From an uncultured Candidatus Saccharibacteria bacterium (lineage in GTDB: Bacteria > Patescibacteriota > Saccharimonadia > Saccharimonadales > UBA7683), in assembly GCA_964643895.1 (NCBI GenBank), contig CAZXUE010000001.1, positions 17,083-81,082 on the forward strand: 64,000 bases of DNA. The letters are read 5' to 3'. Position numbers and translations under genes: made by a program. Of this stretch, positions 76-60,075 are shown in pieces; the first letter of the stretch is position 1; each line of letters starts with the position of its first letter. Below the pieces are notes generated by a model. The model searched no databases. It worked only from the letters and a program-made list of their open reading frames with translations, and had not been told where the DNA came from.

Positions 76-489
76 TTATTTACCTGCTTTCTTGGCACCG
101 TACTTAGAACGGCCCTGTTTTCGATCGGCAACACCTTGAAGATCAAGGTTACCGCGAACAATGTGGTAGCGCACACCCGGAAGATCCGGCACACGTCCAC
201 CACGCACCAATACTACGGCGTGTTCTTGGAGGTTATGACCTTCACCGCCAATGTAAGCCCAAACTTCGTGACCGTTTGAAAGGCGCACACGAGCAACCTT
301 ACGGAGGGCTGAGTTCGGTTTGCGTGGGGTTTTAGTGGTTACTTTAATACAGACACCGCGTTTGAACGGGGCTGGCTTTTCGTAACTCTTTGCCTTGAGA
401 GTGTTATTCACCTTGCGTAGCGCAGCGGTTTTCACCTTGTTGCCGCTACTACTGCGAGGTTTTCGCACGAGTTGGTTGATTGTTGGCAT
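76..489 (-). CDS. rpsL: 30S ribosomal protein S12
   Basis: Translation [12 protein letters not shown]...KYGAKKAGK is a canonical S12. I trimmed the ORF to the internal ATG (cat at 487-489) that gives the conserved MPTINQL N-terminus. It follows rpoB-rpoC on the same strand, as in the conserved rpoBC-rpsL arrangement. Confidence 0.93.
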
Positions 490-744
490 GTATAAAAATT
501 CTCCGGAATTTCTATAGTGGAGAGTAATAAGTGAATGGTGATTAGTACTCAGCACTTCCTAATCACTTCTCACTTCTCACTGACCACCTTGTTAATATGT
601 GAAACTCTTCAGCTGATTGTAACAGTTTTTTGCTTAAGATGCAATCCAGCTCACTGTCGTCCTGAGCTTGTGGAAGGATCTACTCTCAGTTACTAGATCT
701 TTCGACTTCGCTCAAGATGACGATGAAACGATATTTTTACAGTC

Positions 745-3700
745 TTACAGAGCGACTTCTTCTTCGTGCAGGACACCGGTTCCTACTGGAATCTTACGAC
801 CGATGATGACGTTTTCTTTAAGGCCGTAGAGACGATCTACGCGACCACTGGTGGCAGCATTGATAAGCACGCGAGTTGTATCTTGGAACGAAGCGGCTGA
901 AAGGAAGCTATCACTCCAGGTAGAGACCTTGGCGATACCAAGTAATAATTGGCTAAATTCAGCAGGCTGCTTGCCTTCGGCGACGAGTTTGGCGTTCTCT
1001 TCAATCACTGCGGCTTTGCTAACGATGTCACCGGTTACAAACAAGGTGTCACCGCTGTCTTCAATCTGCACACGGCTAAACATCTGTCGAACGATGATCT
1101 CAAGATGTTGGTCAGCAAGATCTACACCTTGCTGCGCAAACATACCGAGGATCTCGTTAATAATGTAGCGCTGCGTTTCTTCAACACCGCGAAGGCGCAT
1201 CAGATCATGCAGATTCAGCGAACCGTTAGTAAGGCGATCACCAGCATTTACACTATCGCCATCTTGCACAACAATTACTTTCGTAGCTGGTATTTCGTAT
1301 TTAACCGGTGCAGTATGGTGAGCGGTTAAGATTGCGCTGGTCTTAGTAAACTCGACTGTTGCAGCAAATGGTGCCACAAGCGGTCGATCACCGTCCTTAT
1401 CGGAGGCAATAACATCACCCGCTAGAATCTCGGTTCCGCTCTTGATCTGTGGTTTGCGTTTTTCAAGCGGTAGCTCTTCAACCTTCGCATCAGTCGGGCT
1501 AATTTGGATGACATAGTGATTACCTTCTTCCCAAATATTCACCGTACCATCAAGTTCGCTCAAGAAAGCTTGTGAACGTGGTACGCGGGCCTCGAGAAGC
1601 TCTTCCACACGCGGCAGACCTTGTGTTACGTCTTCAGAAAGCGCAGCACCGGCAGTGTGCTTAGTACGCATAGTCAGCTGAGTGCCTGGCTCGCCAACAG
1701 ATTGGGCAGCAATAACACCAACTGGCTGGTGAGCTTTCACGATTTCACCAGTTGCCATATCGATACCGTAACTCTTCGGGCTAATACCGCGCAGGTTAGC
1801 GGCTGAAAGCACGCTTCTGATACGAACTTCCTGTAAATCACTGGCGTCAATCTGGTTGGCAACGTCTTCGGTAATGAGTTCGTTCGCAGCGACAACTGTT
1901 TTACCACCAACTTTAACGTCTTCTGCGGCAAAACGACCGCTTAAACGAACCCCGTAGTTCATACCGAGATTTTCGGTTTCAGAACGCTTCATAACCAGGC
2001 CTTTATCTTCGCCCTCTTCAGCAACGGTAAAGACATCTTGGGCTACATCTACCATACGACGGGTTAGATACCCGGAGTCGGCGGTACGAAGCGCAGTATC
2101 AATCAAACCCTTACGAGAACCACGGGTGTCAACGAAGTATTCAATCGGGGTGAGACCCTTTTTGTAGTTGTTTCTGATTGGCAGCTCAACTTCGCGACCA
2201 ACTGCGTCTACCACCAGACCCTTCATGCCAGATACCTGCTTGATTTGGCTCGTTGAACCACGGGCGCCAGAGATCATAGCAATGCTAATACCGGTATCAA
2301 CGTCGTTATATGCGTCAACCAGTTTAGCCTGAGCTTTTTCATCAACATCACGCCAGGTATTCACAGTAAGGCGGTAGCGTTCTTCTTCGGTAATCAAGCC
2401 TTGTTCGTACTGATCTGAAATAGCTGAGGCCTTTTCTTCACCAACCCCAATTAGCCCATCGAGCCCTTCGAGATCAATGTAGTCATCCATACCAGTTGAG
2501 ATACCAGCAAAGGTTGCGTAGCTAAAGCCGAGACGCTTGAGTTCATCGGCAATCTGGGCAGTGGCATCGTCACCGTACCGAGCAAACACGCGACCCATTA
2601 CGGCTATGAGCTTTTTCTTGCTCATTGCCTCATTTTGGAAGGCGAAGTCTTCAGGGAAGATTGCATTGAAGAGCAGGCGACCAACAGTTGTTTCAACAAT
2701 TTCACCACGGAAGTTGGTTCGGACACGACTTTGTAGCTTCAGTTTGTCTGCCTCAAGCGCCATAATTGCCTCGTCGAGGCTGGCAACCGGCGTCACAACA
2801 TCGGTCGTCACTCCTGGTTTTTCGTAGGTAAGGTAGTAGCAACCGAGTACGATATCTTGTTCGATATGCAGAATTGGTGAACCATCGGCAGGTTTCAGCA
2901 GGTTTTTGCTGGCTTGCATTAATTCACGTGCTTCTTTTTGAGCAATATCAGAAAGCGGCAAGTGCACAGCCATCTGGTCACCGTCGAAGTCGGCGTTAAA
3001 GCCTTTACACACGAGCGGGTGAAGCTGAATTGCCTTACCCTCAATTAATTTTGGCTTAAATGAAAGTATTGAAAGACGGTGCAACGTTGGAGCGCGGTTC
3101 AAAAGTACGTATTTACCTTGAATAACGTCATCAAGTGCATCCCAAATAACACTCTCGTTAGCTTCAATCAAACGAGTCGCACTCTTAATATTATGTGCGT
3201 ATTCGTGTTCCATGAGCCAGCCAATTACAAACGGCTTGAAGAGCTCAAGCGCCATAAGTTTTGGCAGACCACATTCGTCAATTTTAAGCTCTGGACCAGC
3301 CACAATAACGCTTCGTCCAGAGTAGTCAACGCGCTTACCGAGCAGGTTCTGACGGAAGCGACCCTGCTTACCCTTTAGTTGATCGCTCAGCGACTTCAGA
3401 CGTCTACGGCCGCCAGTTGCACTGACAGCGCGGCCCGAACGAGCGGCTGAGTTATCAATTAATGCATCGACAGCCTCTTGCAGCATGCGCTGCTCGTTAC
3501 GGCGAATTACCTCAGGAGCGTTCAGATCCATCAGCTTCTTCAAACGGTTATTGCGATTGATAACCCGACGATAGAGGTCATTCATGTCTGATGTAGCAAA
3601 CCGGCCACCAGTGAGTTGCACCATCGGACGTAGATCTGGAGGAATCACGGGCAGAATACTCACGCACATACTACCAGGATCAATTCCGGCGTTTTGCATA

Positions 3701-4545
3701 CCCTCGAGCATCTTGAGGCGCTTCATAAGCTTCTTTTTACGCTGGCCTTTGGCACCTTCAACTTCTTCGCCAAGTTCAGCGATCAGCGTATCAAGCTTGA
3801 TCTCATCAAGCATCTTCTGCAAGGCCATGCCGCCCATACCGACTTCAGCGATGTCTTGATACTCATCCGGCATGGCTCGGTAATCTGTTTCAGAGATAAG
3901 ACCACTCTTAGAAAGTGATTCTAGCTGCTGTTTTTTGGTAAGGTACTGATTGGTTACTTCGTCGATTTCTTTACTTTGAGCTTCGGCCAAAGCCTTTACG
4001 TCGGCGCCTTCAGCCTCAGCCTCTTTTTCAAAGCGGGTTTTAATGGCGACTTTCGCTGCCTCAAGCTCAGCTTCCGCGTCTGCCAGAAGCTGCTCCTTCT
4101 TCTGCTCGTCCACATTAATAATGACGTACGAAGCAAAGTAAACAATACGCTCTAAGTTTTTCACAGTAATATTAAGCAGCAAGCCAATAGGGCTTGGTGT
4201 ACCTCGGAGGAACCAAATGTGTGCCACCGGAGCAGCCAGGCCAATGTGGCCCATACGTTCACGTCGGACAATTGACTTAGTGACAAGTTCGCCGTTCTTG
4301 TCAACTGCTGCTTCTCGCGAACGTACACCTTTGTATTTTGCGTCATGCGGATTAATGTCTTTAACTGGACCAAAGATGCGTTCGCAGAATAAGCCGTCGC
4401 GTTCTGGCTTTTGCGTACGGTAGTTGATGGTTTCCGGTTTTGTTACCTCACCGTAGCTCCAATCGAGAATGTCGCTGGGGCTGGCAACTACCAGTCGAAC
4501 AGCATCAAAATCGGTCATTGTAGTGGTAAATAGACCTGGTCTCAT
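745..4545 (-). CDS. rpoC: DNA-directed RNA polymerase subunit beta'
   Basis: 1266-1295 aa with conserved NADFDGD, the [23 protein letters not shown] N-terminal region and a C-terminal clamp. I chose the start at 4545 because GGAGGAGG (the last rpoB codons) lies 6 nt upstream of that ATG. Alternative ATGs are at 4518 and 4632. Confidence 0.95.
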
Positions 4546-4546
4546 A

Positions 4547-7500
4547 TTACGCCTCCTCCTCTGTCTCGGGCGTGGCCACGAGATCGTCATCATCTTGATT
4601 ATCGTCAGTTGCAAGTGGGTCATTAGTCGCACTATCAGAGGTGCCTATGTCATCAAGTACTTCAAATTCACTAGCTACCATTTCTTCAGTCACATCCATC
4701 GGCGTTGCCTCGGCTGTTACTTCTGGTAGATTTTCAGCTTCTTCAGCAACGGTCGCTTCAAGCACTTCCTCAGCGTCAACTTCAATACCGTTTTCATTGA
4801 TTAAATCAACTCTCAGGCTTAAGCCTTGGAGCTCTTTCACAAGTACGTTAAAGCTTTCTGGAATTTTTGGTCCCACAATTGGTTCTTGCTTGATGATGCT
4901 TTCATAGGCTTTTGAACGGCCGTAGACGTCATCAGACTTCAGCGTCAGCATTTCTTGCAAAGTATTGGCAGCGCCGTAGGCTTCGAGTGCCCATACTTCC
5001 ATCTCTCCAAAACGTTGACCACCATTTTGAGCCTTACCACCAAGCGGCTGCTGGGTAACCATCGTGTATGGCCCGATACTTCGAGCATGAATTTTATCAG
5101 CGACCATGTGGTGCAGCTTGATAATGTGCATTACACCGACTGAAACACGTTCTTTAAAGTATTCACCAGTTCGGCCGTCAATTAACGACTGTTTGCCATC
5201 TTCAGGTAAACCAGCCTTCTTGAGTTCGGCCTTAATAGCATCGACTGGTACACCATTAAAGGCCGGGGTTGCAACCTTGTATCCAAGTGCACGCGCTGCC
5301 ATACCAATGTGAGTTTCAAACAGCTGACCGATGTTCATACGTGATGGCACACCAAGCGGGTTAAGCACGATATCAACAGGCGTACCGTCTTCCATAAATG
5401 GCATATCTTCTTCTGGCATAATGCGGGCGATGACACCCTTGTTACCATGCCGCCCCGCCAACTTATCACCAACCGCAATCTTACGCATTTGTGCAACAAA
5501 CACCTGAACCTGCATTAACACGCCTGCTTTAAGATCGTGACCGTTCGCGCGGCTGAAGATCTTTACGCCAACAACCTTGCCGTGCTTACCGTTACTCATA
5601 CGCTGAGAGGTATCACGAACGTCCTTGGCTTTTTCACCAAAAATTGCGCGAAGTAGACGCTCTTCCGAACTTAGCTCTTGCTCACCCTTTGGCGTAATTT
5701 TACCAACAAGGATATCGCCAGCTTTCACTTCTGCGCCAATGCGAACCACACCATTTTCATCGAGATGACGCAGACTTTCTTCAGACACATTTGGAATATC
5801 GCGAGTAACGATCTCAGGGCCAAGCTTAGTTTCTCGCACCTCAACCATGTAGTCGGTAATGTGGACAGATGTTAGTTCGTCATCTTCTACCAGCCGTCGA
5901 GAGATAACAATAGAATCTTCAAAGTTATAACCATTCCATGGCATAAATGCCACCACTAGGTCTTTACCGAGTGCGAGTTCACCATCTTCCACACTCATAC
6001 CCTCAATTATTACGTCGCCAGCCTTCACTTCGTCACCAGTGCTAACAACAACTTTTTGGTTCATGCTTGAACCTTCGTTTGTGCGAACAAAATGCTGTAG
6101 TTTGTAAGTTTTAGAGGTCTTCTCGTATTTCACGATAACCTCATTGCCATCAGCCTTCGTCACCTTACCGGTACTTTCAGCATAAATAACCTGGCCGCTA
6201 TTGGCTGCCACAATGGCTTCCATACCCGTGCCAACCACTGGGGCTTTGGTTTTAATCAGCGGAACAGCTTGTTTTTGTTGGTTTGAGGCGATGAGGGCAC
6301 GACCCACGGCATCCTTTTCGGCAAATGGAATGAGTGATGCAGTTGAACCCAAAATTTGGTTACGTGCAGCATCCATGTGAGTTACTAATTCGGCGTCAAC
6401 CTCTTCAGGCTGCAGTTTCACACGAGCCGAAACACGTTCGTCTTCAAAGGTGCCGTCAGCTGTAAGCTCAAGACCAGCTGACGCAATAACAGCCCGTTTT
6501 TCTTCATCAGCATCAAGATACACAACCTCTTTGGTAACTTTACCGTTTTTTACCACGCGGTAAGGGGTTTCAATGAATCCGTAATCATTAACACGAGCAT
6601 GCGAACCCAGGTTGAGCACCAAGCCAATGTTGGCGCCTTCAGGCGTCTCTACCGTACAAAGACGGCCATAGTGAGTAGCATGCGCATCGCGCACTTCAAA
6701 GCCAGCACGTTCGCGCGAAAGACCACCAGGACCCATCGAACTCAAACGGCGCTTGTGAGCAAGTTCTGAAAGTGGATTAGTTTGATCCATAAATTGTGAA
6801 AGCTGTGATGAAGCGAAGAACTCGCGAACCGCAGCTACAATTGGACGTGCGTTAATTAGTTGCGCTGGGGTTACCGTTTCAATTTCAGACATACTCATGC
6901 GGTCTTTGGCGTTGCGCTCCATTCGCAGGAGACCAATACGGAATTGGCGCTGTACGAGCTCGCCAACCAACTTCACCCGGCGATTTGCAAGGCTATCAAT
7001 ATCATCTGGTGCTTCTTGTGTGTTGTTCAGGCGAATAATTTCTTTCACAATGGCAACTAAATCGTCGAGGCGCATAACGCGGTTTTCGGCCACGTTCGCA
7101 ACATCGATATCAAGCCGCTTATTCATCTTGTAACGGCCAACACGGGAAAGATCAAAGCGTTTAAAGTTAAAGAATACATTTTCAATCAGGCTGCGGGCGT
7201 TATCAACAGTTGCAAGATCGCCAGGGCGGATACGGCGATACACCTCAATCAGCGCATCACTGTTGCCTTTACTTGGGTCTTTTGCCAGTGTTGCTTCAAG
7301 GTAACTGACCTCACCATTATCAACATCCTTAAAGAGCTCTTTTAGCTGCGCATTTTGCGAGTACCCGAGCGCACGAAGTAGTGTGGTAACAGGAAGCTTA
7401 CGGCGGCGGTCAATTTTTACATAAATTGCACCGTTGGCCGCTGTTTCAAACTCTAACCACGCACCACGGCCGGGGATCAGCTTGGCGCCGTATACATTCC

Positions 7501-7978
7501 GGCCACCGCTTGTCTCTGCTGTAAAGAATATGCCTGGGCTACGGATCAGCTGGCTGACAACCACGCGTTCAGCACCGTTGATCACAAATGTACCTCGAGA
7601 AGTCATCCATGGGTAATCACCAAGGTAGATCTCTTGTTCTTTAACTTCACCGGTAACTTTATTGGTAAGTTCCAGGTTTGCGTAGAGTGGAGCCTCAAAG
7701 CTCACGTTGTTTTCGCGAGCCGTCAGCTCATCCATCTTTGGATCACCAAAGTGATATTCTTTAAACCGTAGTTCAATCTTAGTACCCGTATAGTCTTCAA
7801 TCGGGTTAATTTCAGCGAAGATCTCACCGAGGCCCTCTTGTACAAACGTCTGAAACGATTTTGTTTGATGCTCAATCAAATTAGGAATAGTTAGTGCGTC
7901 GTCAGTTTTTGTAAAGTAGACTCGCTTGCCTGATGCTGTGTTGTCAGTTTTGGTTTTGCTTGTGTGCGTGGTCGCCAT
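4547..7978 (-). CDS. rpoB: DNA-directed RNA polymerase subunit beta
   Basis: 1143 aa covering the rifampicin region and the catalytic fork motifs. AAGGAG lies 9 nt upstream of the ATG. An unusual ~75-aa strongly acidic C-terminal tail (…DDNQDDDDLVATPETEEEA) is present. Confidence 0.96.
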   Translation of the reverse strand: MATTHTSKTKTDNTASGKRVYFTKTDDALTIPNLIEHQTKSFQTFVQEGLGEIFAEINPIEDYTGTKIELRFKEYHFGDPKMDELTARENNVSFEAPLYANLELTNKVTGEVKEQEIYLGDYPWMTSRGTFVINGAERVVVSQLIRSPGIFFTAETSGGRNVYGAKLIPGRGAWLEFETAANGAIYVKIDRRRKLPVTTLLRALGYSQNAQLKELFKDVDNGEVSYLEATLAKDPSKGNSDALIEVYRRIRPGDLATVDNARSLIENVFFNFKRFDLSRVGRYKMNKRLDIDVANVAENRVMRLDDLVAIVKEIIRLNNTQEAPDDIDSLANRRVKLVGELVQRQFRIGLLRMERNAKDRMSMSEIETVTPAQLINARPIVAAVREFFASSQLSQFMDQTNPLSELAHKRRLSSMGPGGLSRERAGFEVRDAHATHYGRLCTVETPEGANIGLVLNLGSHARVNDYGFIETPYRVVKNGKVTKEVVYLDADEEKRAVIASAGLELTADGTFEDERVSARVKLQPEEVDAELVTHMDAARNQILGSTASLIPFAEKDAVGRALIASNQQKQAVPLIKTKAPVVGTGMEAIVAANSGQVIYAESTGKVTKADGNEVIVKYEKTSKTYKLQHFVRTNEGSSMNQKVVVSTGDEVKAGDVIIEGMSVEDGELALGKDLVVAFMPWNGYNFEDSIVISRRLVEDDELTSVHITDYMVEVRETKLGPEIVTRDIPNVSEESLRHLDENGVVRIGAEVKAGDILVGKITPKGEQELSSEERLLRAIFGEKAKDVRDTSQRMSNGKHGKVVGVKIFSRANGHDLKAGVLMQVQVFVAQMRKIAVGDKLAGRHGNKGVIARIMPEEDMPFMEDGTPVDIVLNPLGVPSRMNIGQLFETHIGMAARALGYKVATPAFNGVPVDAIKAELKKAGLPEDGKQSLIDGRTGEYFKERVSVGVMHIIKLHHMVADKIHARSIGPYTMVTQQPLGGKAQNGGQRFGEMEVWALEAYGAANTLQEMLTLKSDDVYGRSKAYESIIKQEPIVGPKIPESFNVLVKELQGLSLRVDLINENGIEVDAEEVLEATVAEEAENLPEVTAEATPMDVTEEMVASEFEVLDDIGTSDSATNDPLATDDNQDDDDLVATPETEEEA

Positions 7979-8324
7979 AAACAGCCTGCTCCTTAGGTTA
8001 GCGACGTGATCTTATCTGATTACACTACAATAGAACCCTGGTGTTGCCAGAGTGTCTAACCCTACACGTTAATTTGTACGAGTGAGTGTGAGTCTAATCA
8101 AAACGTGATCGCGCCGTTTCTTGTTTGATTAAAATTAGTGATCTTTTAAGAAGTCACCCTAAGCCGGTTACAATCTAAAAACTAGATTGATGATTTACTA
8201 CCGTGCACCAACAGTAAATCAAGGGCTTTACTACCTCTATGCTCTCCATTCTGAACCCTCTGCAACCAATTGTCAAGCAGCTTGTGTAACTAAATCTTAG
8301 GTCGACACTGCAAGCAGTGGCAGT

Positions 8325-8909
8325 TTACTTAATTGGTTTTGTGACGATTTTGTCTACCAACCCGTACTTCACGGCTTCGTCTGCGGTAATCCAAAAATCT
8401 CGCTCCATGTCCTCATGGATTTTCTTTATGGTTTGGCCAGTGTTTTTAGCCATAATTGCTTCAAGAAGGCGTTTTACTCGAAGCGATTCTCTCAGATCAA
8501 TTTCTTGGTCAGTTACCTTGCCGCGAGTGCCGCTGGAAGGCTGATGTATCATCACCGTCGCGTTTGGAAGTAAAAACCGTTTACTTTTTGCGCCGGAACT
8601 GAGGAGAAAGGCCGCCGCCGAAGCCTGCACGCCAATACCAAAGGTTTGCACATCGTTACCGATGAACTGCATAGTGTCATATATCGCCAAAGCGTCGTAC
8701 ACACTACCACCCGGGCTGTTAATGTAAAGATAGATGTCTTTTTTTGGATCTTCACTTTGCAGAAATAGCAGCTGAGCAACAATCAAGCCAGCGGTGTGTT
8801 CATTAACCTCATCGTGTAGAAAGATAATTCGTTCTCTAAGAAGCCGACTATAGATATCAAAGGCGCGTTCGCCTTGACCGGATGGTTCAATTACGGTTGG
8901 AATTAACAT
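8325..8909 (-). CDS. clpP: ATP-dependent Clp protease proteolytic subunit
   Basis: [25 protein letters not shown]-terminus. The Ser-His-Asp triad context is intact ([26 protein letters not shown]). Confidence 0.95.
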
Positions 8910-8926
8910 ACTGTAATACTAGCAAT

Positions 8927-8953
8927 TTAGCACTCAAAACACAAGAGTGCTAA
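8927..8953. promoter_or_regulatory. CIRCE (HrcA operator) inverted repeat upstream of clpP
   Basis: ttagcactc-aaaacacaa-gagtgctaa is a perfect match to the CIRCE consensus TTAGCACTC-N9-GAGTGCTAA. It ends 17 nt upstream of the clpP ATG. Confidence 0.8.
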
Positions 8954-8995
8954 ACACTATTGTTTAATCTTGACTGTTGTGATATAATAAAAAGT

Positions 8996-9391
8996 ATGGA
9001 TACATCGCAGGCCATGAAGCGTAAGGTGGTTGAGCTGACCTTTTCGCGTGATTTTGAAGCGCTACTATTAGCGCACCCCACTCCTCATACCTCGTTGACA
9101 CACGACCTTGAGTTGGCAATTGAGCGTGGCCTCGAACGTCTAACCGAGCTTGAAGATGTACGAGAGTTGCAGCATCAGACCCTTATCTCCCATTTAGTAA
9201 CGCAAACCAACAGGTATCGAACCATGGAAAGCGATTATTTTAATCATTGGAAGATCGCACTTTCAGAAGATTTGCTTGATGAGGTTGATTTGCTTTTTTT
9301 AAGCCATAGTAAAGATCTTGTTCAGCTTGGTTTGTTCGCCGAAACCACCGCTGCCGTTTTACTGCTGCTCGCTGTTGCTGGATTGCGGTAA
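8996..9391 (+). CDS. hypothetical protein (possible C-terminal TM helix)
   Basis: 131-aa ORF from the first ATG. It has no Shine-Dalgarno (SD) sequence. It lies opposite the tig-clpP orientation and converges and overlaps with the 9359-9598 ORF. Its coding status is uncertain. Confidence 0.25.
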   Translation: MDTSQAMKRKVVELTFSRDFEALLLAHPTPHTSLTHDLELAIERGLERLTELEDVRELQHQTLISHLVTQTNRYRTMESDYFNHWKIALSEDLLDEVDLLFLSHSKDLVQLGLFAETTAAVLLLLAVAGLR

Positions 9392-9598
9392 GCTGCCGCG
9401 AATTGGCCACAACGCAGTTACAAGCGCTGCTAGCGCAAAACCTCCAGACAAAGCATTTCTGCCAAGTTCGGAGATGGTGGGGTCGTATCGTACTGCAGCA
9501 CTGCAGCCTAACTCTACTGCTACATTACATACCCTTTGAGCTCTTTTTGCACCTACAAGATCTGCAGCGCCTTCTCTAATCATCTCACGGAGTGCCAC
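9359..9598 (-). CDS. small hypothetical protein (79 aa, C-terminal hydrophobic segment)
   Basis: A GTG start lies 8 nt after the tig stop, with AGGAG 7 nt upstream. That placement suggests co-transcription with tig. No recognisable family. Confidence 0.4.
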   Translation of the reverse strand: MALREMIREGAADLVGAKRAQRVCNVAVELGCSAAVRYDPTISELGRNALSGGFALAALVTALWPIRGSLPQSSNSEQQ

Positions 9599-9606
9599 TT
9601 GAGCTC

Positions 9607-10893
9607 CTACTGCGCACCGATTGCTAACGAATAAAGTTTGTCGACAGTCCTTTCAGTAAGCAGTCTTGATGCTACCTCGCGGCGCATCTCGGGGCTGTCA
9701 AACTGCGCGGCCGATTGCTGATATTGCTGTTTGTAAAGCTCAACTCTCTGAGTAAGTTCGGCCTCGTCAACCGAGAGCTTTTCCTTCTCGGCTACTTCAG
9801 CCAGTACCATACCAACTGAAACTCGGCGCTCGGCTTGCTCTTTAAGCTCTTTAGCCTTCCACTCCTCCTCATCCTTGAAGCCAGCTTGCTTTATATATTC
9901 AGATTTCGTAATACCCCGGTACATCAAGTTTTGGTTAAAATCATGCTCAAGCATGGCGATCTGATCATTCACCAACACTTCCGGCAGTGGAAACTTCGAT
10001 TTTTTAACCAGCTCCTCGACAATCTCGTCCTTTACTTTGTTCACCGCCTCAACCTCTTTTTGTTCCAGAAGCTGAGCCTTAACGTCTTTCTTCAGATCTT
10101 CAAGTGTTTTAAACGGCCCAACGCTCGCTGCAAATGCATCATCAAGTAGAGGCAAGGTTGAAACCTGCACCTTCTTCACTGTTACCGCGAAGGAGATGTC
10201 AGTTCCGGCAAGATTTTTGGCATGATAGTCTTTTGGAAAAGTGAGCTTTAGCTCTTTTTTGTCGCCTTTTTTAACACCAACCAGACCTTCTTCGAAACCG
10301 GGTATAAAACTCTTACTACCAAGATTAAGCGTGTAATCTGTGCCACTCGCGCCCGCAACTTTGTTACCATTGCCATCCTTTCCTTCGAAGTCAATAATAA
10401 CGTCATCACCATTCTTAGCTGGCTTATCGCTGTCTTCTTTCACCGCACTACGACTGACCAGATTTTTAAGTACATCCTCAATCTCTTTAGCGGTTACCGT
10501 CACCTTTGGTGCCGTTTTTTTAATTTTGGAATAATCGGCCAATTTTACTGCTGGCATAATCTCCACTTCGGCCGTAAATTCCAGTTCGGTATACGGTACA
10601 AAATTACCGACACCGACTTCTGGTTGGCTAAGCGTCCGAAGCCCTTGTTCTTCCAGCGCCTTACCGTAAAAATCATTGATCGCGTGGTTAATCACGCTCG
10701 CTTGCAGCTGATTTTGATCAAGCTGCTTTTCAACAACACTCAGCGGCGCCTTGCCGGGTCGGAACCCTGCGACCTTGGTTTTCTTGGCTTGCTCTTCAAG
10801 CTCATGCTGCTTGGCATGCATGAGCTCCTCAAGGCCTAGGCTGATACTTAGTTTTACTTTTGTCTCTGAAATGTCATTACGTGATACTTGCAT
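9607..10893 (-). CDS. tig: trigger factor
   Basis: 428 aa with the ribosome-binding N-domain motif GFRPGKAP, an FKBP-like middle domain and a C-terminal chaperone domain. It is upstream of clpP, the classic tig-clpP neighbourhood. Confidence 0.93.
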   Translation of the reverse strand: MQVSRNDISETKVKLSISLGLEELMHAKQHELEEQAKKTKVAGFRPGKAPLSVVEKQLDQNQLQASVINHAINDFYGKALEEQGLRTLSQPEVGVGNFVPYTELEFTAEVEIMPAVKLADYSKIKKTAPKVTVTAKEIEDVLKNLVSRSAVKEDSDKPAKNGDDVIIDFEGKDGNGNKVAGASGTDYTLNLGSKSFIPGFEEGLVGVKKGDKKELKLTFPKDYHAKNLAGTDISFAVTVKKVQVSTLPLLDDAFAASVGPFKTLEDLKKDVKAQLLEQKEVEAVNKVKDEIVEELVKKSKFPLPEVLVNDQIAMLEHDFNQNLMYRGITKSEYIKQAGFKDEEEWKAKELKEQAERRVSVGMVLAEVAEKEKLSVDEAELTQRVELYKQQYQQSAAQFDSPEMRREVASRLLTERTVDKLYSLAIGAQ

Positions 10894-30837: not shown

Positions 30838-33348
30838 CTACTTTGTTGTCGACTGACTGGCTCTAGACTTTGCGACAGCTTTGACCACTGGAGAAACAAT
30901 GACTTTACCTTTTATGGCAGCGACATCAAAATGAGTTACTTCTGGAGAGAGTCCGGCAATCACTTCCTCGGCAATCTGGTCTTCAATCTCGTCTTGCAGC
31001 TCACGCCTCAAAGTTCTGACACCACTTTGTGGTTTGTAACCTTTTTTGAGCAGCACCCGTTTGGCTTGCAACGAAACCCGAATACTAAGGTTATGCTCTT
31101 GCTCCAAGCGTTGGTTGAGCTCTTCAATCTGTAGATTGAGCACTTGCAGCGCCTCTTTGTTGGTCAGGGCACGAAAGATCACAACTTTATCGATACGGTT
31201 AATTAATTCTGGCCGCATGGCGCTTTTGAGCTCTTCCATAACACGCTCTTTGTTGTCTTCGTGCAGTTCATCGAGATCAGACTGCTCGTCATCGTTACTC
31301 ACACGGAACCCAAGGCTAGATTCTCGCTGCAACTGTTCCGCACCCACGTTTCCGGTCATAATAATAACCGTATTTGTGAAATCAACGGTTCGACCTTTTG
31401 CATCTGTCAAGACGCCGTCTTCCAATATCTGTAACAACATGTTAAATATATCGGGGTGTGCTTTTTCAATTTCGTCAAGCAAAATAAGACTATACGGGTT
31501 TCTGCGTACTTTGTCGGTCAATTGACCGCCTTCTTCGTACCCCACGTAGCCAGCAGGGGCGCCGACCAGCCGCGAGGCTGTGTGCCGTTCGGAAAACTCA
31601 CTCATATCAATTTTTATCAAAGCATCACTGCGATCATATAGTTCACGAGCTAGCACGCGCGCCAGTTCAGTTTTACCTACACCGGAAGGACCTAAGAATA
31701 CAAACGAGCCAATTGGGCGAGTGCGAGCACTGACGCCTGACCGATTACGGCGAATTGCCCGGGCAACTGCTTGCAAAGCCTCAGATTGGCCAATAACGTG
31801 CTTTGCCAGGGTCTTCTCTAAATTCATGAGGTAGCTAGCCTCTTTTTTAAGGATCTTCTGAGCTGGAATACCGGTAATGAGGGCTACCGCGCCTGCTAAA
31901 TCTTGCTCTGTCATGATAAGACGACTACGGAACTTGCTACGTTGCTTTTCCAGCGTTTCCTCAAGCTCTGCAAGCCTTACTTTGTGCTTAGCAGCCACTT
32001 CAAAGTTCTCATGAATGACCGCTTCTTCCATGCGATGACGATATAACTTAATTTCCTTCAAAAGTTTTCGTTGCGTTTCAGGCACATGCGAGCGTTCCAC
32101 CCGAATATGAGCCGCCGTTTCATCAAGTAAATCAATCGCTTTGTCTGGCATGAACCGTTCTGCCATGTAGCGCTCGCTTAAACGAACTGTTTGTTCAATA
32201 ATTGTATCATCAATGCCAACGCCATGATGGGCCTCGTACTTTGCCTTAAGACCGCGCAAGATCGCAACCGTTTCCTCCACGCTTGGCGGCAATACTTGCA
32301 CACTTTGAAAGCGCCTTTCTAGTGCAGCATCTTTTTCAATACTTTTTTGGTACTCGTCAATAGTTGTCGCACCGATAACCCTCATCGTGCCCCGAGCAAG
32401 TACCGGTTTTAAGATATTAGCGGCATCAAGCGCGCCTTCGGCGGCACCCGCACCAACTAGCAGGTGAATTTCATCGATAAAGACAATCACGTTACTATCG
32501 GCCGCAATTTCCTGCATGATGGCTTTGAGACGCTCTTCAAACTCGCCACGATATTTGGTTCCGGCAATCATCCCTGCGAGGTCGAGCATAACAATACGTT
32601 TATCAAGTAGGTTTTCTGGGGCTTTTTCTTCAGCAATGCGTTGTGCCAAACCTTCAACAATTGCAGTTTTACCAACGCCCGGCTCTCCAATGAGTACAGG
32701 ATTGTTTTTAGTGCGTCTTGAAAGAATGGTGATCACGCGCTGCAACTCTTTTGCTCGACCAATAACCGGATCCAACCGACCCGCTCTAGCTTCTTCGGTT
32801 AAATCTGTTCCGAAGAACTCTAGTGCACTCTGAGCTTTTTTATTACGAGGTTTTTTGCCAGTTGCAGCCTCTTCATACTCAAAGCGCTGCTGGTTGAGAT
32901 AGCCCTCAAGCTCTGAAGTTAAGTCATCAACGTTGATGTTCATATCACGCAGCAGTACATTTGCCCGCGCATTTTTCTGAATAAGAATACTGTAGAGAAT
33001 ATGTTCCGTACCGCAATAATCTTGATTAAATTCTTTGGCTATCTCCCAGCTCGTTCGTAGAGTTAATTTAGCCGCCTCACTCAAGCCTTTGCCGCCAGCT
33101 AGGTTAATAACCAAGGCTTTCGGAGTTAGCTTCAGGGCGGTGCGTGCTCTATCGAGCGTTACACCTGATGTCTCTAAAAGTTTTGCACCAATTGAGCCAT
33201 TTTGACTAAGAACCCCTAGTAGAATATGTTCCGTGCCAATATAAGCACTGCCGAAACCCCGAGCAATGCCTTCAGCATGCTGAAGGCTGTTCCGCGCGTT
33301 CTCCGTCAGCCGGTTTAAAAATTCCTGAAAATCTTTTGCCGAGTTCAT
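30838..33348 (-). CDS. clpC: ATP-dependent Clp protease ATP-binding subunit ClpC
   Basis: Two Clp_N repeats and two AAA+ modules ([16 protein letters not shown]) with a short middle domain. That architecture is ClpC-type rather than ClpB. Confidence 0.92.
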
Positions 33349-33364
33349 ACTCCCATTGTAGCAC

Positions 33365-33391
33365 TTAGCACTCCAAACACAAGAGTGCTAA
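33365..33391. promoter_or_regulatory. CIRCE (HrcA operator) inverted repeat upstream of clpC
   Basis: ttagcactc-caaacacaa-gagtgctaa is a perfect CIRCE. It ends 16 nt upstream of the clpC ATG. The spacer is nearly identical to the clpP copy. Confidence 0.8.
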
Positions 33392-33548
33392 TCCATCAAT
33401 CTCTCACGCACACGAAGCTGAATGATTGAGCACCATATTCATTACCACAACCCATACAATTATCTGTTACACCAACAACTCTTGTAGCTCCAACACCTCT
33501 TTGGAGGCTAATGTCCTCAGTCTCAAGACCGTACTCAGTGTGAACACA

Positions 33549-33716
33549 TCAATCTTCACCTATATCTGGAACAAATACGTCATACTCGCCATCACGCGAG
33601 CCGTGTGTGATAGCAGCTGTCATAAGATCGCCGCAGTTATCTTGACAGAAATCAGGTATAGTCGTTTCGTTTTCCCAGTAGAGGCCTCCTGGCAGCAGCG
33701 GACAGCGCTCAGCCAT
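33549..33716 (-). CDS. small acidic Cys-containing ORF (55 aa)
   Basis: The ATG lies 1 nt after the nusA TAG stop (MAERCPLLPGG…). No SD and no known family. Confidence 0.25.
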   Translation of the reverse strand: MAERCPLLPGGLYWENETTIPDFCQDNCGDLMTAAITHGSRDGEYDVFVPDIGED

Positions 33717-33717
33717 A

Positions 33718-34914
33718 CTACTCCCCGTGTTCTTCGATGGCGCCAAGTAAACCGGCTTCGATGTCGTCGCGGCGCTTTGGCTTGGCTGGTTTTTTGGCAG
33801 GTGAATTTTCAACTACTGGCGCTTTTTCGGTAGCTGGTTCGGCTACTTCCGGAGCCGCCACAGGAGCTGGTGTGCCAGACTCAATGTCAAGTTCGTAGCC
33901 GGTTAGTTTACTGGCAAGACGCACGTTCTGGCCACCCTTACCAATGGCGATAGAAAGTTGCGATTGATCCACAATAACCTTGGCGTGCTTCACCTTCTCG
34001 TTTAGTTCAACGCGGATAACTTCTGTTGGGGAAAGGGCATTCTTGATATAGGTCTCAGTATCTTCAGCAAAGGTAATGATATCGATTTTCTCTTGATCAC
34101 CAATTTCGTTCATCACCGCTTGCACGCGTGTACCATGGCCACCCACGAAGGTTCCTACAGGATCAACGCCAGGGACAGTTGAAGCAACTGCCAATTTAGT
34201 ACGCATACCAGCCTGACGGGCAATGCCCTTAATTTCAACGGCACCAGTTTCCATCTCGGGAACTTCTTGACGGAAGAGGTATTCAATAAAGGCTTCGTTG
34301 GCGCGAGAAAGCACCAGCTGCGGGCCACGATTGCCGCGTTCCACATCTTTCAAAAAGACTTTAATGCGCGAGCCAACACCGTAGTATTCGCCCTGAATTT
34401 GCTCGCTTGCTGGCAAGATACCGGTGGCTTTGCCAAGATCGACTCGAACCACACGAGGCTCAACGCGTTGCACAGTACCCACAATAACGGTACCTATTTT
34501 ATCTTCATACTCTTCAAGAATAATCTCACGCTCAGCCTCGCGCAGACGCTGTAAGATCACCTGTTTTGCTGTCTGGGCAGCTACGCGGCCAAAGGTGGTA
34601 GGATGCGCAACTTCCGTAATAACATCGCCAACTTTGGCATCTTTTTTAAACTTCCGCGCCTGCTCTACCGTGAGCTGTTGGGCGTCATTTTCAACAGCGT
34701 CATCCTCAACTACATCGTAGCTAGTGGTTGCAGTAACATCGCCGGTGTTTTGATTAAGCTGGACGGTTACGTTTTGTTCACGTTCGCCAAAATCTTTACG
34801 AAACGCAGCCGCAAGAGCTTGCTCTACTGCTTCGTGCACAATATCTTCGGGAAGATTCTTTTCTTCAGCTAAAACCTTGATGGCAGCAACTAATTGTTTA
34901 ATTTGCAATTCCAT
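33718..34914 (-). CDS. nusA: transcription termination/antitermination protein NusA
   Basis: N-terminal domain, S1 and two KH domains (IGKGGQNVRLASKLTGYELDI), with a lysine-rich tail. Confidence 0.92.
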   Translation of the reverse strand: MELQIKQLVAAIKVLAEEKNLPEDIVHEAVEQALAAAFRKDFGEREQNVTVQLNQNTGDVTATTSYDVVEDDAVENDAQQLTVEQARKFKKDAKVGDVITEVAHPTTFGRVAAQTAKQVILQRLREAEREIILEEYEDKIGTVIVGTVQRVEPRVVRVDLGKATGILPASEQIQGEYYGVGSRIKVFLKDVERGNRGPQLVLSRANEAFIEYLFRQEVPEMETGAVEIKGIARQAGMRTKLAVASTVPGVDPVGTFVGGHGTRVQAVMNEIGDQEKIDIITFAEDTETYIKNALSPTEVIRVELNEKVKHAKVIVDQSQLSIAIGKGGQNVRLASKLTGYELDIESGTPAPVAAPEVAEPATEKAPVVENSPAKKPAKPKRRDDIEAGLLGAIEEHGE

Positions 34915-55910: not shown

Positions 55911-56615
55911 CTAACTTGGTGTAAGTATCCAGCGGGTAACCTCTTCACGGAGACGCCGGTATTCTGCCTCCTCAAATTGCATATTAGCGATACAAAAACG
56001 ATAGCCGCTGATATTTGAACAGAACATACTGTCCTGCATGTCCCCGCAATCATGCATCATAAGGCAATCCGTTAAGCCCCCAGATCTGGTGATTCCAAAG
56101 CTATTCGCGCACTGGCCACTATCTTCTGCTCGTATACAAAATGTGAGTGGACCACCTGACTGTGAGGCAAAAACAAACTCACTATCATGAATATTATCAC
56201 TGTAGTAGATATCTTTTGAGCGGAAAATGTCACGGGAATGAAAGACGTTTTCAGATTCTTCCACCATATCAGATTCGGCAACGTTAATACCATCTACCAC
56301 AAACTCCGTGGTTATAGCGTTAATACCGTTCCATTTGGAAAGAATATCCTTTAGATCTTTTATTGGCTGTGTGGCGTAAAGACCCTTTGTAGGTGAAGCC
56401 TCGTTGTTGCGGGCGTTTTCCATTTTGACAAATCGTGAGGCACTAGCCGAAGCACTCCATGTCGTACTGCCATCGGTATAGTCCTTCACTTTATTTGGTA
56501 AGTAGATATCGAAAGTAAACTTCTTAATCGCTTGTTCAAGGCTGAGTGGGTTTTCAACACCAAAAATCTGCTTGATAATCTTATCGAGCGCAATCTTTGC
56601 TTGTTTTTTATCCAT
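55911..56615 (-). CDS. Cys-containing repeat protein, tandem paralog A (234 aa)
   Basis: ~70% identical to paralog B. It has conserved FCIR, CxNSFG, DCxMMHDCGDMQDSMFCSN and FCIANMQFEEAEY blocks. The start lies 13 nt after the paralog B stop, with no SD. Confidence 0.75.
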   Translation of the reverse strand: MDKKQAKIALDKIIKQIFGVENPLSLEQAIKKFTFDIYLPNKVKDYTDGSTTWSASASASRFVKMENARNNEASPTKGLYATQPIKDLKDILSKWNGINAITTEFVVDGINVAESDMVEESENVFHSRDIFRSKDIYYSDNIHDSEFVFASQSGGPLTFCIRAEDSGQCANSFGITRSGGLTDCLMMHDCGDMQDSMFCSNISGYRFCIANMQFEEAEYRRLREEVTRWILTPS

Positions 56616-56628
56616 ACTACAAATTGTA

Positions 56629-57333
56629 CTACGAAACCGGCGAGAGTATCCATTGAATGACTTGGTCTCTTAGCCGATAGTATTCGGCCTCTTCGAACTG
56701 CATGTTTGCAATGCAGAATTGTTTGCCATTCATGTTACTACAGAACATACTGTCTTGCATATCACCACAATCGTGCATCATTATGCAGTTAGTTAAACCA
56801 GCTGAACGAGAAACACCAAAGCTATTCGTGCACCGCACACTATCGTCCGCACGTATGCAAAATGTCACAAAGCCGCTCCGCTGTGAACCAAAAACGAATT
56901 CACTATCAAATACACTGTCACTAAATAGAATGTATTTAGACCTATCAATATTGGTCGATCTAAATACGTTCTCTGAGTTCATAACCATGTCTGATTCCGA
57001 AACATTGAGGGAATCTAATGTAAACTCTGAGGTGGTTAAATTAACGTGTTCCCATTTTGAAAGAAGGTCGGCAAGATCTTTTATAGGCTGCGTGGCATAA
57101 AGACCATCATGTTCATTACCATTATTTCGCGCATTATCAATTTTAATAAACTTAGTAGGATTCGGAGATGATGTCCATGTATCAGATCCGTCTGTACTAT
57201 CTTTGACTTTTTCAGGAAGACGAACATCGAACGCAAATTTTTTGGCGAACTCCTCAATTGAAAGTGGGTTTTCAACACCAAAAATTTGTTTAACAATTTT
57301 GTCGAGCGATTCTTTTGCTTGTTTCTTATCCAT
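56629..57333 (-). CDS. Cys-containing repeat protein, tandem paralog B (234 aa)
   Basis: Collinear with A and C. The N-terminal ~25 codons are ~80% identical to A at the DNA level. Confidence 0.75.
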   Translation of the reverse strand: MDKKQAKESLDKIVKQIFGVENPLSIEEFAKKFAFDVRLPEKVKDSTDGSDTWTSSPNPTKFIKIDNARNNGNEHDGLYATQPIKDLADLLSKWEHVNLTTSEFTLDSLNVSESDMVMNSENVFRSTNIDRSKYILFSDSVFDSEFVFGSQRSGFVTFCIRADDSVRCTNSFGVSRSAGLTNCIMMHDCGDMQDSMFCSNMNGKQFCIANMQFEEAEYYRLRDQVIQWILSPVS

Positions 57334-57345
57334 GCTAAGAGTGTA

Positions 57346-58050
57346 CTACGAAGTAGGTGAAAGTATCCATTGCACAACTTGTTGACGCAAATGTTCGTAC
57401 TCTTGCTGGGTAAACTGCATGTTCGCTATGCAATATTGACGGCCTCGCATGTTGGTACAAAACATACTGTCTTGCATGTCATAGCAATCGTGAATGAAGA
57501 ACGAATTATTGATTTTGCTGCTCCACGAAACACCAAAACTATTAGAACATTCGCCGCTATCTTCAATTCGTATGCAAAAAGCGTTGCCGCCAGATCGAGA
57601 ACCCGCTGCAATAAACTCTGAATCTTCTACGCCATCTGAAAAGAGTACATTTTTGCTGCGGCGGATATCTTGCGATCTATAAACGTTTTCGGATTTCAAG
57701 ATACCATCACTTTCTGCAACACCTATAGATTCAATTTCCCTCTCGGTAGTGGTTAAGTTAATTTCGTTCCACTGCGCCAGAAGCTCCTGCAGATTATTGA
57801 TCGGCTGTTTTTCGCGAAATCCATCGTTTTGCTCGTAGCGTGCTCGCGCATTTTCCATTTTTATAAACTTAGTTGGGTTAGTTGAGGAAGCCCAGGTTGG
57901 CTCGTTGGTTGTAGAATCATAAACCATTTGTGGCAAACGCACATCAAAAGCAAACTTTTGCATAAACTGCTCAAGACTGAGTGGGTTTTGATAGCCACAA
58001 ACCTGGCCAATAATTTTATCGAGTATTTGCTTTGCTTGATCGGCGTTCAT
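57346..58050 (-). CDS. Cys-containing repeat protein, tandem paralog C (234 aa)
   Basis: ~45-50% identical to A and B, with the same length and block order. AGAGGA SD 7 nt upstream. The start lies 12 nt after the ATPase stop. Confidence 0.75.
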   Translation of the reverse strand: MNADQAKQILDKIIGQVCGYQNPLSLEQFMQKFAFDVRLPQMVYDSTTNEPTWASSTNPTKFIKMENARARYEQNDGFREKQPINNLQELLAQWNEINLTTTEREIESIGVAESDGILKSENVYRSQDIRRSKNVLFSDGVEDSEFIAAGSRSGGNAFCIRIEDSGECSNSFGVSWSSKINNSFFIHDCYDMQDSMFCTNMRGRQYCIANMQFTQQEYEHLRQQVVQWILSPTS

Positions 58051-58062
58051 ACTATATCCTCT

Positions 58063-60075
58063 TTACTTTTTAAGTTTTGCTCTACTTGATGATTGACTGG
58101 CTAGAATATCCTGCAAATTAATAAATTCCCTTTGGCCAACAGCCGCTGTTGCCTGAGCTGGGTGTCCGCTTGAAGCTGTGCCAGAACTTGCAGACTGAGG
58201 GACAGCTTGCCGCAAGGCCTCACGCTGTTGCTGCTGTTCAACAAATCTTGCAGGTAGCTCTTGCTTTTGTTCATACGTTTTAAGTTCAGCTTGTTTGTGT
58301 ATGACTGGTGCAGCCGTAACATCAAGCGTACGAGCCTTCACACAAGGTAGAAGCTGGCCGCCAGCTGAAAGGCGCAAAAAGCACTCCCGCGGATGCAGAG
58401 TTGTGAGCATTTGTACCCGCACATCTGATTGTTTTAAGCCCTTTTCCTTCTCGCCTTGCAAGATTTCTTTGGGAATCTCGATATTAAGGTTGCCCTCTAG
58501 TGCACGAGCATCTTCCTCTGAAACTTTAAAGACGTAGTAATTGTAGACATTGGTGAAGATAGCAGCCTGAAGATTCTGCTCGATCTGACCAAAATACTGC
58601 TGCGTTAGTACCACGGAGAGACCGAACTTACGAGCCTCGGCCAAAATTTGCGCCAACGCTGGATTTTGCACCACCGAAACCTCATCAACTATTAAAATGA
58701 CCTTCTGATCGAAAGCCCGTGCCTGCGCTAGAAGAAAAATCTGCTGAATTAGCAATCCGGCAATGGTTTTTACTACCTTCTCGCCCATACTGACCTTATT
58801 GAGTGAGAAAACTGTTAAGAAATTACTGTTTACAATCTGGCCAATCGAGGTGGCGCTTTGATCGTTGCCAGCTAAACTTGGTTGCATTTGCATCTCATCG
58901 ACCAACGAGGCGATTGGCGAGATTGCCTCGTTATAAAATTTAGTACGAATTTCATTAAAATCAGTGCCGAAGAATCGAACAATATTTTCTGGTACGTAAC
59001 CTTGAACATGCGAAAGCAGCTGATTACGGTATTCGATATCTGTTACAAAGCGCTTCAGCGAATCGAGCGACATAACCTGCGCAGTCATCAAAACATACAG
59101 TGAGAACCTTAAGACTCGCTCTAGTTTTGGATTGTGCTGGTCACTAAGCAGCGATTTAAAGAGCGTGCCGGTTAGTTCAGTCGCGGCGGAGATATCGGTT
59201 CCTGTGCCGCCAAAAAGTTCGGTTCCCTCATTTTGGCCTTTAAAGTTGATAACCGTACTCTCTTGAATTCCCTTTAAATCATCTTCCAGCGAGGCGTGTG
59301 GATCAATAACGATTACTCGGTAATTTTGCTTCAAGCCATGAGAATTGGCCAATTTATCCACAAGTAGACTAATCAGTTTGGATTTACCGCTGCCACTAGC
59401 ACCTATGATGAAAGAATGCTTTTCAAAATCGTACGAATTCAGGCCGAGATAGTAATTTTTCGGCAAATATGGAAAAGTATCAACTTCAAAAACGGCACCA
59501 AGGTTTTCGCTCTGCATAATATGCAGTGACTTTTGAATATCGAGATACTTAGTAACCTTTTTGCGCAGATAGCGAGTGTTGGCCGTGAAATCAATTGCCA
59601 GCATAAATGAAGGGAACGCGGCGGCAACTTTATGGTTGATTGTCCAGTTTTTGCCACCATCTTGAAAGTAAAGGTAGCTATGGGTAATGGCTTTTTCAAA
59701 ATTAATTCGACGGCATTTCACTACCAGAAACTGGAGGTCTTTAGCTTTTTTAACCTTATACTTCTCCTTCAAATCAAGAAGATCACCGCCAGCCTTCACC
59801 ACAACCAGCCGCTCTTTGCCAGCCGAGGATGCCGAGGGCAGACCGATCACTTCCGGTTTTACGGGCCGCAAAACTCCTACCTCGATATTATTTGAAAGCG
59901 AGCCAAGGTCGCGGTCACTGAGCACAAAATAACGAATGGTGTTTTCCTCAACCTTAACGATAACCTGAAATTCTTTCAGAACGCCGACATATTGGGAAAA
60001 CACATTATAGAGACGGTTCCAGTCCTCTCTGGTAACCTCGTCTCTCAGCAGGAAAAATTCAAAACAATGTTTCAT
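58063..60075 (-). CDS. FtsK/HerA/VirB4-superfamily P-loop ATPase (AAA_10/DUF87-like)
   Basis: [19 protein letters not shown] (Walker A preceded by a conserved His), VILIVDEVS (Walker B) and [14 protein letters not shown] (the R-K-x-G…TQ motif shared by HerA, VirB4 and FtsK). No TM segments. The ~220-aa N-terminal domain is of unknown type. Confidence 0.8.

Follow-up and report, generated by a model that had tools for sequence, protein, structure and literature searches.

A putative clpC promoter interleaved with a perfect CIRCE operator in Candidatus Saccharibacteria

The presence of a perfect CIRCE element just before the gene of a ClpC-type unfoldase raises the question of what this operator does there, and of why a second CIRCE, upstream of clpP, resembles it so closely in its spacer and in its distance to the start codon. 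Both elements lie in a 64,000 nt stretch of DNA from an uncultured Candidatus Saccharibacteria bacterium (contig CAZXUE010000001.1, assembly GCA_964643895.1); the whole stretch was analysed and is called the window hereafter. Clp genes are usually under the control of CtsR, sigma-32 or other regulators. To our knowledge, the regulation of transcription has hardly been explored in Saccharibacteria or Patescibacteria, and literature searches combining HrcA, CIRCE or leaderless with either name returned no relevant paper. The two elements and the genes next to them are as follows:

8325..8909, minus strand: clpP, 194 aa, ATG at 8909-8907
8927..8953: CIRCE upstream of clpP, a perfect copy, TTAGCACTCAAAACACAAGAGTGCTAA; on the gene (minus) strand, left arm 8953-8945, spacer 8944-8936, right arm 8935-8927
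30838..33348, minus strand: clpC, 836 aa (N-domain, D1, short middle domain, D2, LGF loop), ATG at 33348-33346
33365..33391: CIRCE upstream of clpC, TTAGCACTCCAAACACAAGAGTGCTAA on the plus strand; on the gene (minus) strand, left arm 33391-33383, spacer 33382-33374, right arm 33373-33365
33718..34914, minus strand: nusA, directly upstream of clpC and on the same strand

Both elements match the consensus TTAGCACTC-N9-GAGTGCTAA at 18 of 18 positions, with arms of 9 bp and a spacing of exactly 9 bp; read on the plus strand, the clpC copy is TTAGCACTC CAAACACAA GAGTGCTAA. A pattern search of the 64 kb allowing up to three mismatches found just these two sites, both perfect. The chance expectation, estimated from shuffled sequences, was 0.03, and none of 100 shuffles gave two or more sites. 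An earlier note on this DNA had described a perfect CIRCE before clpC, with a spacer one base away from that of the clpP copy and with gaps to the ATG of 16 nt (clpC) and 17 nt (clpP). All of this was borne out: the pattern match at 33365-33391 is exact, 8 of the 9 spacer positions agree, and the gaps comprise bases 33349-33364 and 8910-8926, respectively. Judged by its sequence, its position and the conservation described below, the clpC site can be regarded as a bona fide CIRCE.

The identification of the 836-aa product as a ClpC-type Hsp100, i.e. a ClpP-coupled unfoldase, and as ClpC rather than ClpB, holds. Pfam detected two Clp_N domains followed by AAA, AAA_lid_9, AAA_2 and ClpB_D2-small. 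Residues 11-800 aligned in a single stretch to the ClpC proteins of S. aureus and B. subtilis and to ClpC1 of M. tuberculosis, whereas the matches to ClpB structures were split into pieces. The translation contains an SLGF loop (SLGFRV), which we take to be of the kind that docks on ClpP. No NCBIfam equivalog cut-off was reached by this protein. The 194-aa product scored above the cut-off of NCBIfam PRK00277 (ClpP subfamily) and is therefore ClpP. The start codon assigned to clpC is right, because the N-terminus that it yields (MNSA...) is common to the relatives.

Downstream of clpC lie a 336-aa ORF and then radA. A plus-strand ORF opposite the CIRCE (33426..33833) had no family match and overlaps nusA, and was treated as spurious. 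Between nusA and clpC there is a small Cys-containing ORF on the minus strand (33549-33716; about 55 aa from an internal ATG, MAERCPLLPGG...CQDNCGD...), which has a weak match at the equivalent place in the 88% identical relative L001 (37% over 60 aa, E=7e-7). In the 94% identical relative L006 the same interval is filled by a different ORF of 205 aa, so the region upstream of the CIRCE behaves as a variable slot. Rfam and tRNA scans of the window detected one tRNA-Leu only, and nothing in the nusA-clpC interval. Around clpP, the gene order (76-10893, minus strand) is tig, small ORFs, clpP, rpoB, rpoC and rpsL; the order tig-clpP-rpoB-rpoC-rpsL was kept in all the clpP loci fetched (L201-L210), with no clpX beside clpP. 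The longest ORF for rpoC starts at a GTG (4632) and overlaps the end of rpoB by 86 nt; this is probably not the true start.

The occurrence of the CIRCE was followed through related genomes. Among contigs representing one genome per species in GTDB, the closest clpC loci all belonged to Candidatus Saccharibacteria (Saccharimonadales), with identities of up to 94%, which places the window in Saccharibacteria (TM7). A CIRCE with at most two mismatches was present in 23 of the 23 Saccharibacteria loci fetched (L001-L022 and L030; ClpC 49–94% identical to that of the window), either upstream of clpC or, in L017-L021, upstream of nusA-clpC. At the same threshold it was found in none of 57 clpC loci from other groups (cyanobacteria, Nitrospirota, Planctomycetota, Omnitrophota, Clostridia and others, including one unassigned contig, L023). 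All ten clpP loci of relatives (L201-L210; ClpP 80–96% identical) likewise had a CIRCE just upstream of clpP. In the nearest relative, both sites lie on one contig (JAXMAA010000003.1 of assembly GCA_046350615.1; L006/L201), with spacers TTGCGTTTG and TTGTGTTTT, which differ at two positions, and the 16-nt layout at clpC is already present in a relative with a ClpC of 73–74% identity. The two-site arrangement is therefore old.

In the lineage of the window, the conserved cassette, which consists of the CIRCE and the putative promoter described below, lies between nusA and clpC. In the deeper-branching loci L017-L021 it is found about 1.4–1.5 kb upstream, before nusA, and clpC follows nusA immediately (L017-L020: CIRCE at about 2468-2540, nusA from about 2711 and clpC from about 3977; L021: CIRCE at 1156-1182). 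Since the cassette precedes nusA-clpC in these five loci, NusA would belong to the predicted HrcA regulon of deeper-branching Saccharibacteria.

Is the repressor itself present in these bacteria? Neither hrcA nor groEL/groESL, dnaK, ctsR, mcsA or mcsB was found among the roughly 50 ORFs of the window run against Pfam or NCBIfam. Metagenome contigs were scanned with the pattern TTAGCACTCTTGN6GAGTGCTAA, which yields a set that is biased by the pattern itself and free of taxonomy. The sites recovered precede hrcA, dnaK, dnaJ, groES, clpP, clpC/clpB, htpG, small heat shock protein genes and FmdB-type zinc-ribbon genes. The proteins encoded after these sites, HrcA candidates included, were compared by tblastn with the fetched Saccharibacteria loci and the window; this gave clpC- and clpP-type matches only, and none to hrcA. 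A search started from one of the short HrcA proteins in the set gave relatives (235–240 aa; proteins P0121-P0240) that included entries labelled Candidatus Saccharibacteria at NCBI. These short proteins contain the PF03444 winged helix-turn-helix (wHTH) domain and the C-terminal part of PF01628, and their wHTH aligned to that of T. maritima HrcA (1STZ residues 16-92) with E=5e-19. The T. maritima protein has 338 aa against about 235–240 aa in Saccharibacteria, and the short form seems to lack about 100 residues of the sensor/dimerisation region. Loci with the order hrcA-grpE-(orf)-dnaK-...-dnaJ or hrcA-grpE (L211-L215; hrcA at 6001-6708, in L212 at 5392-6099) begin with the same CIRCE-promoter cassette, in L214 and L215 as TATACT, 6 nt and ATG. 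The repressor is thus present in the phylum and, with a CIRCE at the start of its own loci, appears to be autoregulated.

These data bear on the possibility that the palindrome is bound by some regulator other than HrcA, or that it has no regulatory role and is, for example, the terminator of an upstream gene. The lack of hrcA in the 64-kb window and the unusual shortness of the Saccharibacteria HrcA (about 235 aa) would fit such a reading. The exact 18/18 match to the CIRCE consensus, the well-conserved wHTH of the HrcA proteins and the presence of the same element at the hrcA loci argue against it, and we consider it very unlikely. The CIRCE can form a stable 9 bp hairpin (about -8.8 kcal/mol as DNA, z about -4), with no run of T residues after it. 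A role as a terminator was rejected: besides the missing T-run, no transcript would need termination at the clpP copy, whose upstream neighbour is divergently oriented. Control by CtsR seems excluded as far as it could be tested, as there is no ctsR-mcsA-mcsB-clpC operon and no CtsR box: a search for the direct repeat A/GGTCAAANANA/GGTCAAA with up to three mismatches gave 7 hits in the window against 7.1 expected, none of them in either promoter region. The suggestion in the earlier note that one operator type co-regulates clpP and clpC thus gains support from the orthologous sites across Saccharibacteria and from the hrcA operons that carry the same element; on these sequence comparisons, HrcA co-regulation of clpC and clpP can be considered well supported.

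How the CIRCE might act depends on where it lies relative to the promoter. On the gene strand, elements resembling a sigma-70 promoter were recognized within and immediately after each CIRCE:

33377..33382, minus strand: putative -35 box of clpC, TTGTGT, spacer positions 1-6 when read on the gene strand
33355..33363, minus strand: putative extended -10 of clpC, made up of TG (33363-33362), c and TACAAT (33360-33355)
33346..33354, minus strand: gggagt followed by the ATG of clpC, with 6 nt between the -10 and the ATG
8907..8944, minus strand: putative clpP promoter, with -35 TTGTGT (8944-8939), TG (8924-8923), -10 TAGTAT (8921-8916), tacagt and ATG

At clpC, the -10 would be separated from the preceding -35 by 16 nt and from the right arm of the CIRCE by 4 nt. 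At clpP the spacing between -35 and -10 is 17 nt, and the extended -10 reads TG-c-TAGTAT (8924-8916); the closest clpP relative, L201, has TATAAT at this place. Both -35 hexamers of the window match TTGACA at only 3 of 6 positions. A simple sigma-70 consensus scan around both sites called no promoter upstream of either CIRCE, and it did not call the embedded ones either, because TTGTGT agrees with the consensus at just those three positions. The promoter assignment therefore rests on comparative data.

In the relatives, the spacer of the clpC CIRCE contains TTGACA or TTGACT, and the general pattern on the gene strand is TTAGCACTC, a hexamer such as TTGACn, TTGCAT or TTGTGT, then GAGTGCTAA, 4–6 nt, and TATAAT, TATACT or TACAAT. 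Orientation was analysed in 34 non-redundant Saccharibacteria sites at clpC, clpP and hrcA. The spacer started with TTG on the gene strand in 23 of the 34, and in none on the opposite strand; in the remaining sites the TTGAC motif occurred 1–5 bases later in the spacer, with the -10 correspondingly 8–11 nt after the arm. The best sigma-70 -35/-10 score, at spacings of 16–18 nt, averaged 10.0 out of 12 when read with the gene and 7.5 when read against it. The distance between CIRCE and start codon varied from 16 to 132 nt, and reached about 1500 nt where nusA intervenes; whatever this distance, the -10 (TAnnnT) was mostly found 4–6 nt past the right arm. Since the arms are palindromic and only the spacer is asymmetric, co-orientation of the spacer with the gene is not a property of HrcA binding, while a -35 box requires it. 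The TGn of an extended -10 accompanied 7 of 13 weak -35 variants and 1 of 11 TTGAC ones (P=0.03), a difference that is suggestive, the sequences being related and non-independent.

In the metagenome set, biased towards its search pattern as noted, TAnnnT occurred 3–8 nt after the arm in 39 of the 49 sites with spacers starting TTGAC. By gene, the -10 was present after the arm at 9/9 dnaK, 6/6 dnaJ, 2/2 clpP and 17/30 hrcA sites, and at 3/5 sites of the clpC/clpB cluster (2/3 of its clpC-type members). It was almost always lacking at groES, htpG and FmdB sites, which presumably come from other phyla. Loci L081-L200 contain perfect CIRCEs with a TTG-initial spacer before htpG, small heat shock protein, clpB and FmdB-family genes, mostly with no -10 after the arm; FmdB-type zinc-ribbon genes recurred four times among them, in unidentified environmental bacteria.

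The comparison of the 34 Saccharibacteria sites points to the spacer of both CIRCEs carrying the putative -35 box of the gene's own promoter. The similar spacers and the nearly equal distances to the ATG would then be explained, as the spacer is a -35 box and the distance is made up of the -10, 6 nt and the ATG. In the literature found, no such promoter-in-operator layout, often leaderless, is described.

Beside clpP, a divergent 131-aa ORF (8996-9391, plus strand; 86% identical in L201 and L202, 47% in L203 and L204) has no family match. It shows a leaderless-type promoter of its own, with TTGTTT at 8960-8965, TATAAT at 8983-8988 and the ATG 7 nt further on, so that the promoters of this ORF and of clpP stand back to back (region 8960-9391, plus strand). 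With only 6 nt between the clpP CIRCE and the -35 box of this second promoter, HrcA might also affect the 131-aa ORF.

If the -10 assignments are correct, very little room is left for a leader. The gaps of 16 and 17 nt between CIRCE and ATG result from 4 or 5 nt after the arm, a -10 hexamer and 6 nt. An interval of exactly 6 nt between -10 and ATG was found at clpC in the window and in L001, L004, L006 and L016, and at clpP in the window and in L201. At clpP this gap was 8 nt in L203 and 10 nt in L205-L208; other relatives had leaders of 24–121 nt, some of them with clear GGAGG-type sites (L015, L030). The same signature is seen elsewhere in the window. A TAnnnT starting at -12 or -13 precedes 12 of 50 genes, against 3.3 expected (P=9e-5). 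Nine of these 12 leaderless-type genes have GT right before the ATG, compared with 4 of the 38 others (P=5e-5), and a Shine-Dalgarno (SD)-like motif was present in 1 of the 12 and in 16 of the 38. Such starts are found, for example, upstream of 24483 (PBP1), 35687 (pepN), 39657 (rnhB, minus strand), 40381 (malic enzyme), 44387 (pilB, minus strand) and 62127 (uvrB, minus strand). They also occur in the near-identical upstream regions of two of three tandem paralogous 234-aa ORFs (55911-58050, minus strand; 67% and 50% identical, Cys-rich at the C-terminus, no Pfam match), located immediately downstream of a TrwB/HerA-like coupling-protein ATPase (58063-60075). The GT-ATG context fits a transcription start with a pyrimidine at -1 and A at +1 placed on the start codon, and leaderless expression looks like a common feature of this genome. 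The clpC and clpP mRNAs are probably leaderless too, with transcription predicted to start on the A of the ATG or on an adjacent base.

A different arrangement would be that of B. subtilis, in which the promoter lies upstream and the CIRCE is transcribed within a short 5′ leader, where it serves both as operator and as an RNA stem-loop influencing mRNA stability, with a ribosome-binding site in the 16-nt gap. This is the textbook layout of B. subtilis dnaK and groE; the stable 9-bp hairpin would suit it, and so would the GGGAG before the ATG of clpC. Given an upstream transcription start, that GGGAG could act as a ribosome-binding site, but a badly spaced one at 1 nt from the ATG, and clpP has no SD-like motif at all. 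There is no promoter-like site upstream of either CIRCE. The upstream DNA is not conserved even in close relatives: when the window was compared with the 94% and 88% identical relatives (L006 and L001), left arm, spacer, right arm and -10 formed an essentially invariant block, everything upstream had diverged beyond recognition, and the phylogenetic footprint of the three was limited to CIRCE, -10 and ATG. Finally, the -35/-10 pair inside and just after the CIRCE keeps its position and orientation across the 34 sites. A transcribed CIRCE is hence improbable, though it is the alternative to which we would give most weight.

The likeness of the two leaders had also been taken, in the earlier note, as a sign of a possible recent common origin. 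In that case the clpC and clpP leaders would be recent copies, made by duplication or gene conversion, and their resemblance would be historical, not functional. The spacers identical at 8 of 9 positions, the TGCTA and AGTATG common to both and the gaps of 16 and 17 nt agree with this. Alignment of the two leaders, the check proposed in that note, confined the likeness to the CIRCE, a TGCTAnnAT extended -10 and AGTATG; outside these functional elements there was none, and the sequences upstream of the CIRCE are unrelated. The shared parts are moreover not peculiar to these two leaders. The spacer TTGACTCGT recurs at clpC of L030 and at clpP of L210, the spacer TTGACATGA recurs at many dnaK, hrcA and clpP sites, and leaderless-type starts in this genome generally show GT-ATG. 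Across the phylum, the two sites are kept at orthologous positions, and the contig of the closest relative has both, with spacers differing at two positions. A recent common origin was thus not upheld, as the likeness is limited to functional elements and the arrangement is old; we regard it as highly improbable.

The reading that we favour, and hold with good though not full confidence, is that the CIRCE is merged with the sigma-70-type core promoter of clpC, serving as an HrcA operator for a leaderless clpC mRNA. The spacer of the operator would hold the -35 box and its right arm would fill most of the promoter spacer, followed by the extended -10 (TGcTACAAT) and the ATG. With the two arms occupied by an HrcA dimer, the -35 and the promoter spacer would be covered and RNA polymerase kept out; once HrcA became inactive under heat or protein-folding stress, the promoter would be released. 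According to the B. subtilis model, HrcA loses activity when GroEL is titrated by unfolded proteins. With the same cassette at clpP, protease and unfoldase would rise together with the chaperones. With transcription predicted to start downstream of it, the CIRCE would be absent from the mRNA and work as DNA only. HrcA binding, the transcription start site and stress induction are what we infer from the layout. A broader proposal, to which we attach about an even chance, is that this interleaved cassette, often driving leaderless mRNAs, is general in Saccharibacteria, and perhaps in the wider Patescibacteria, with the ~235-aa HrcA as single master of hrcA-grpE-dnaK-dnaJ, clpP, clpC and some nusA-clpC operons, in place of CtsR, ClgR and sigma-32.

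The operator and its mode of action are themselves textbook. The predicted phylum-wide inclusion of clpC and clpP, in some cases also of nusA, among the targets of HrcA was previously undescribed in this phylum; in a TM7x transcriptome study, clpB and clpP are merely listed among differentially expressed genes. If the proposal is true, a single repressor would govern the chaperones and the ClpCP protease in ultrasmall epibionts, much as HrcA governs clpB and lon in mycoplasmas, which would represent a convergent simplification in reduced genomes. From the layout one can predict where transcription starts, what mutations in the spacer would do and how a stress-inducible leaderless promoter would behave, all of which could be tested in genetically tractable Saccharibacteria strains (PMC10633639). 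In such strains the cassette could also serve as a regulated expression tool.

A close reference is the CIRCE/HrcA operator of the B. subtilis dnaK and groESL operons (Zuber & Schumann 1994, as cited in PMC4245973 and PMC7464140). The consensus TTAGCACTC-N9-GAGTGCTAA is identical, and the element stands directly before protein-quality-control genes, as it does here, where HrcA is the presumed repressor. In B. subtilis, the CIRCE lies downstream of the -10 and of the transcription start, and is transcribed. In contrast, the CIRCE of the window encloses the putative -35 and precedes the -10, would not be included in the mRNA, and has clpC and clpP as its targets instead of chaperonin or Hsp70 operons. 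According to reviews of regulon reconstructions, HrcA has groESL as its only constant target (PMC545781). An extension to other genes is known in Mollicutes, with CIRCEs at clpB, dnaK, lon and dnaJ in M. gallisepticum (PMC4245973) and at dnaK, clpB and lon in S. melliferum (PMC5138195). As here, these genomes are reduced and encode few transcription factors, and HrcA has extended its control to AAA+ chaperone and protease genes in addition to chaperones. They belong, however, to another phylum, the targets are clpB and lon and not the ClpCP pair, and neither the promoter-in-spacer layout nor leaderless starts are described there.

In Firmicutes, the CtsR regulon (ctsR-mcsA-mcsB-clpC, clpP and clpE) offers the same targets, with clpC and clpP co-repressed by one heat-sensitive repressor at the core promoter, and clpC lies near radA as in the window, where a 336-aa ORF is interposed. 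The CtsR operator is a heptad direct repeat, which is absent here, and clpC is preceded in the window by nusA, not by ctsR or mcsAB. A CIRCE before clpP has a precedent in Streptococcus salivarius, whose clpP is reportedly under dual regulation by CtsR and HrcA (Chastanet & Msadek 2003, as cited in PMC3842655). At that gene the CIRCE acts together with CtsR, whereas the window has no CtsR box and its clpC is not part of a ctsR-mcsA-mcsB operon. The mode of action proposed here has a parallel at groESL and hrcA of C. jejuni and H. pylori, where HrcA operators overlap the core promoters and repression occurs by steric exclusion of RNA polymerase (PMC7464140). The operators there resemble CIRCE, extend over the transcription start and work together with HspR; the CIRCE of the window is perfect and would cover the -35 box and the promoter spacer.
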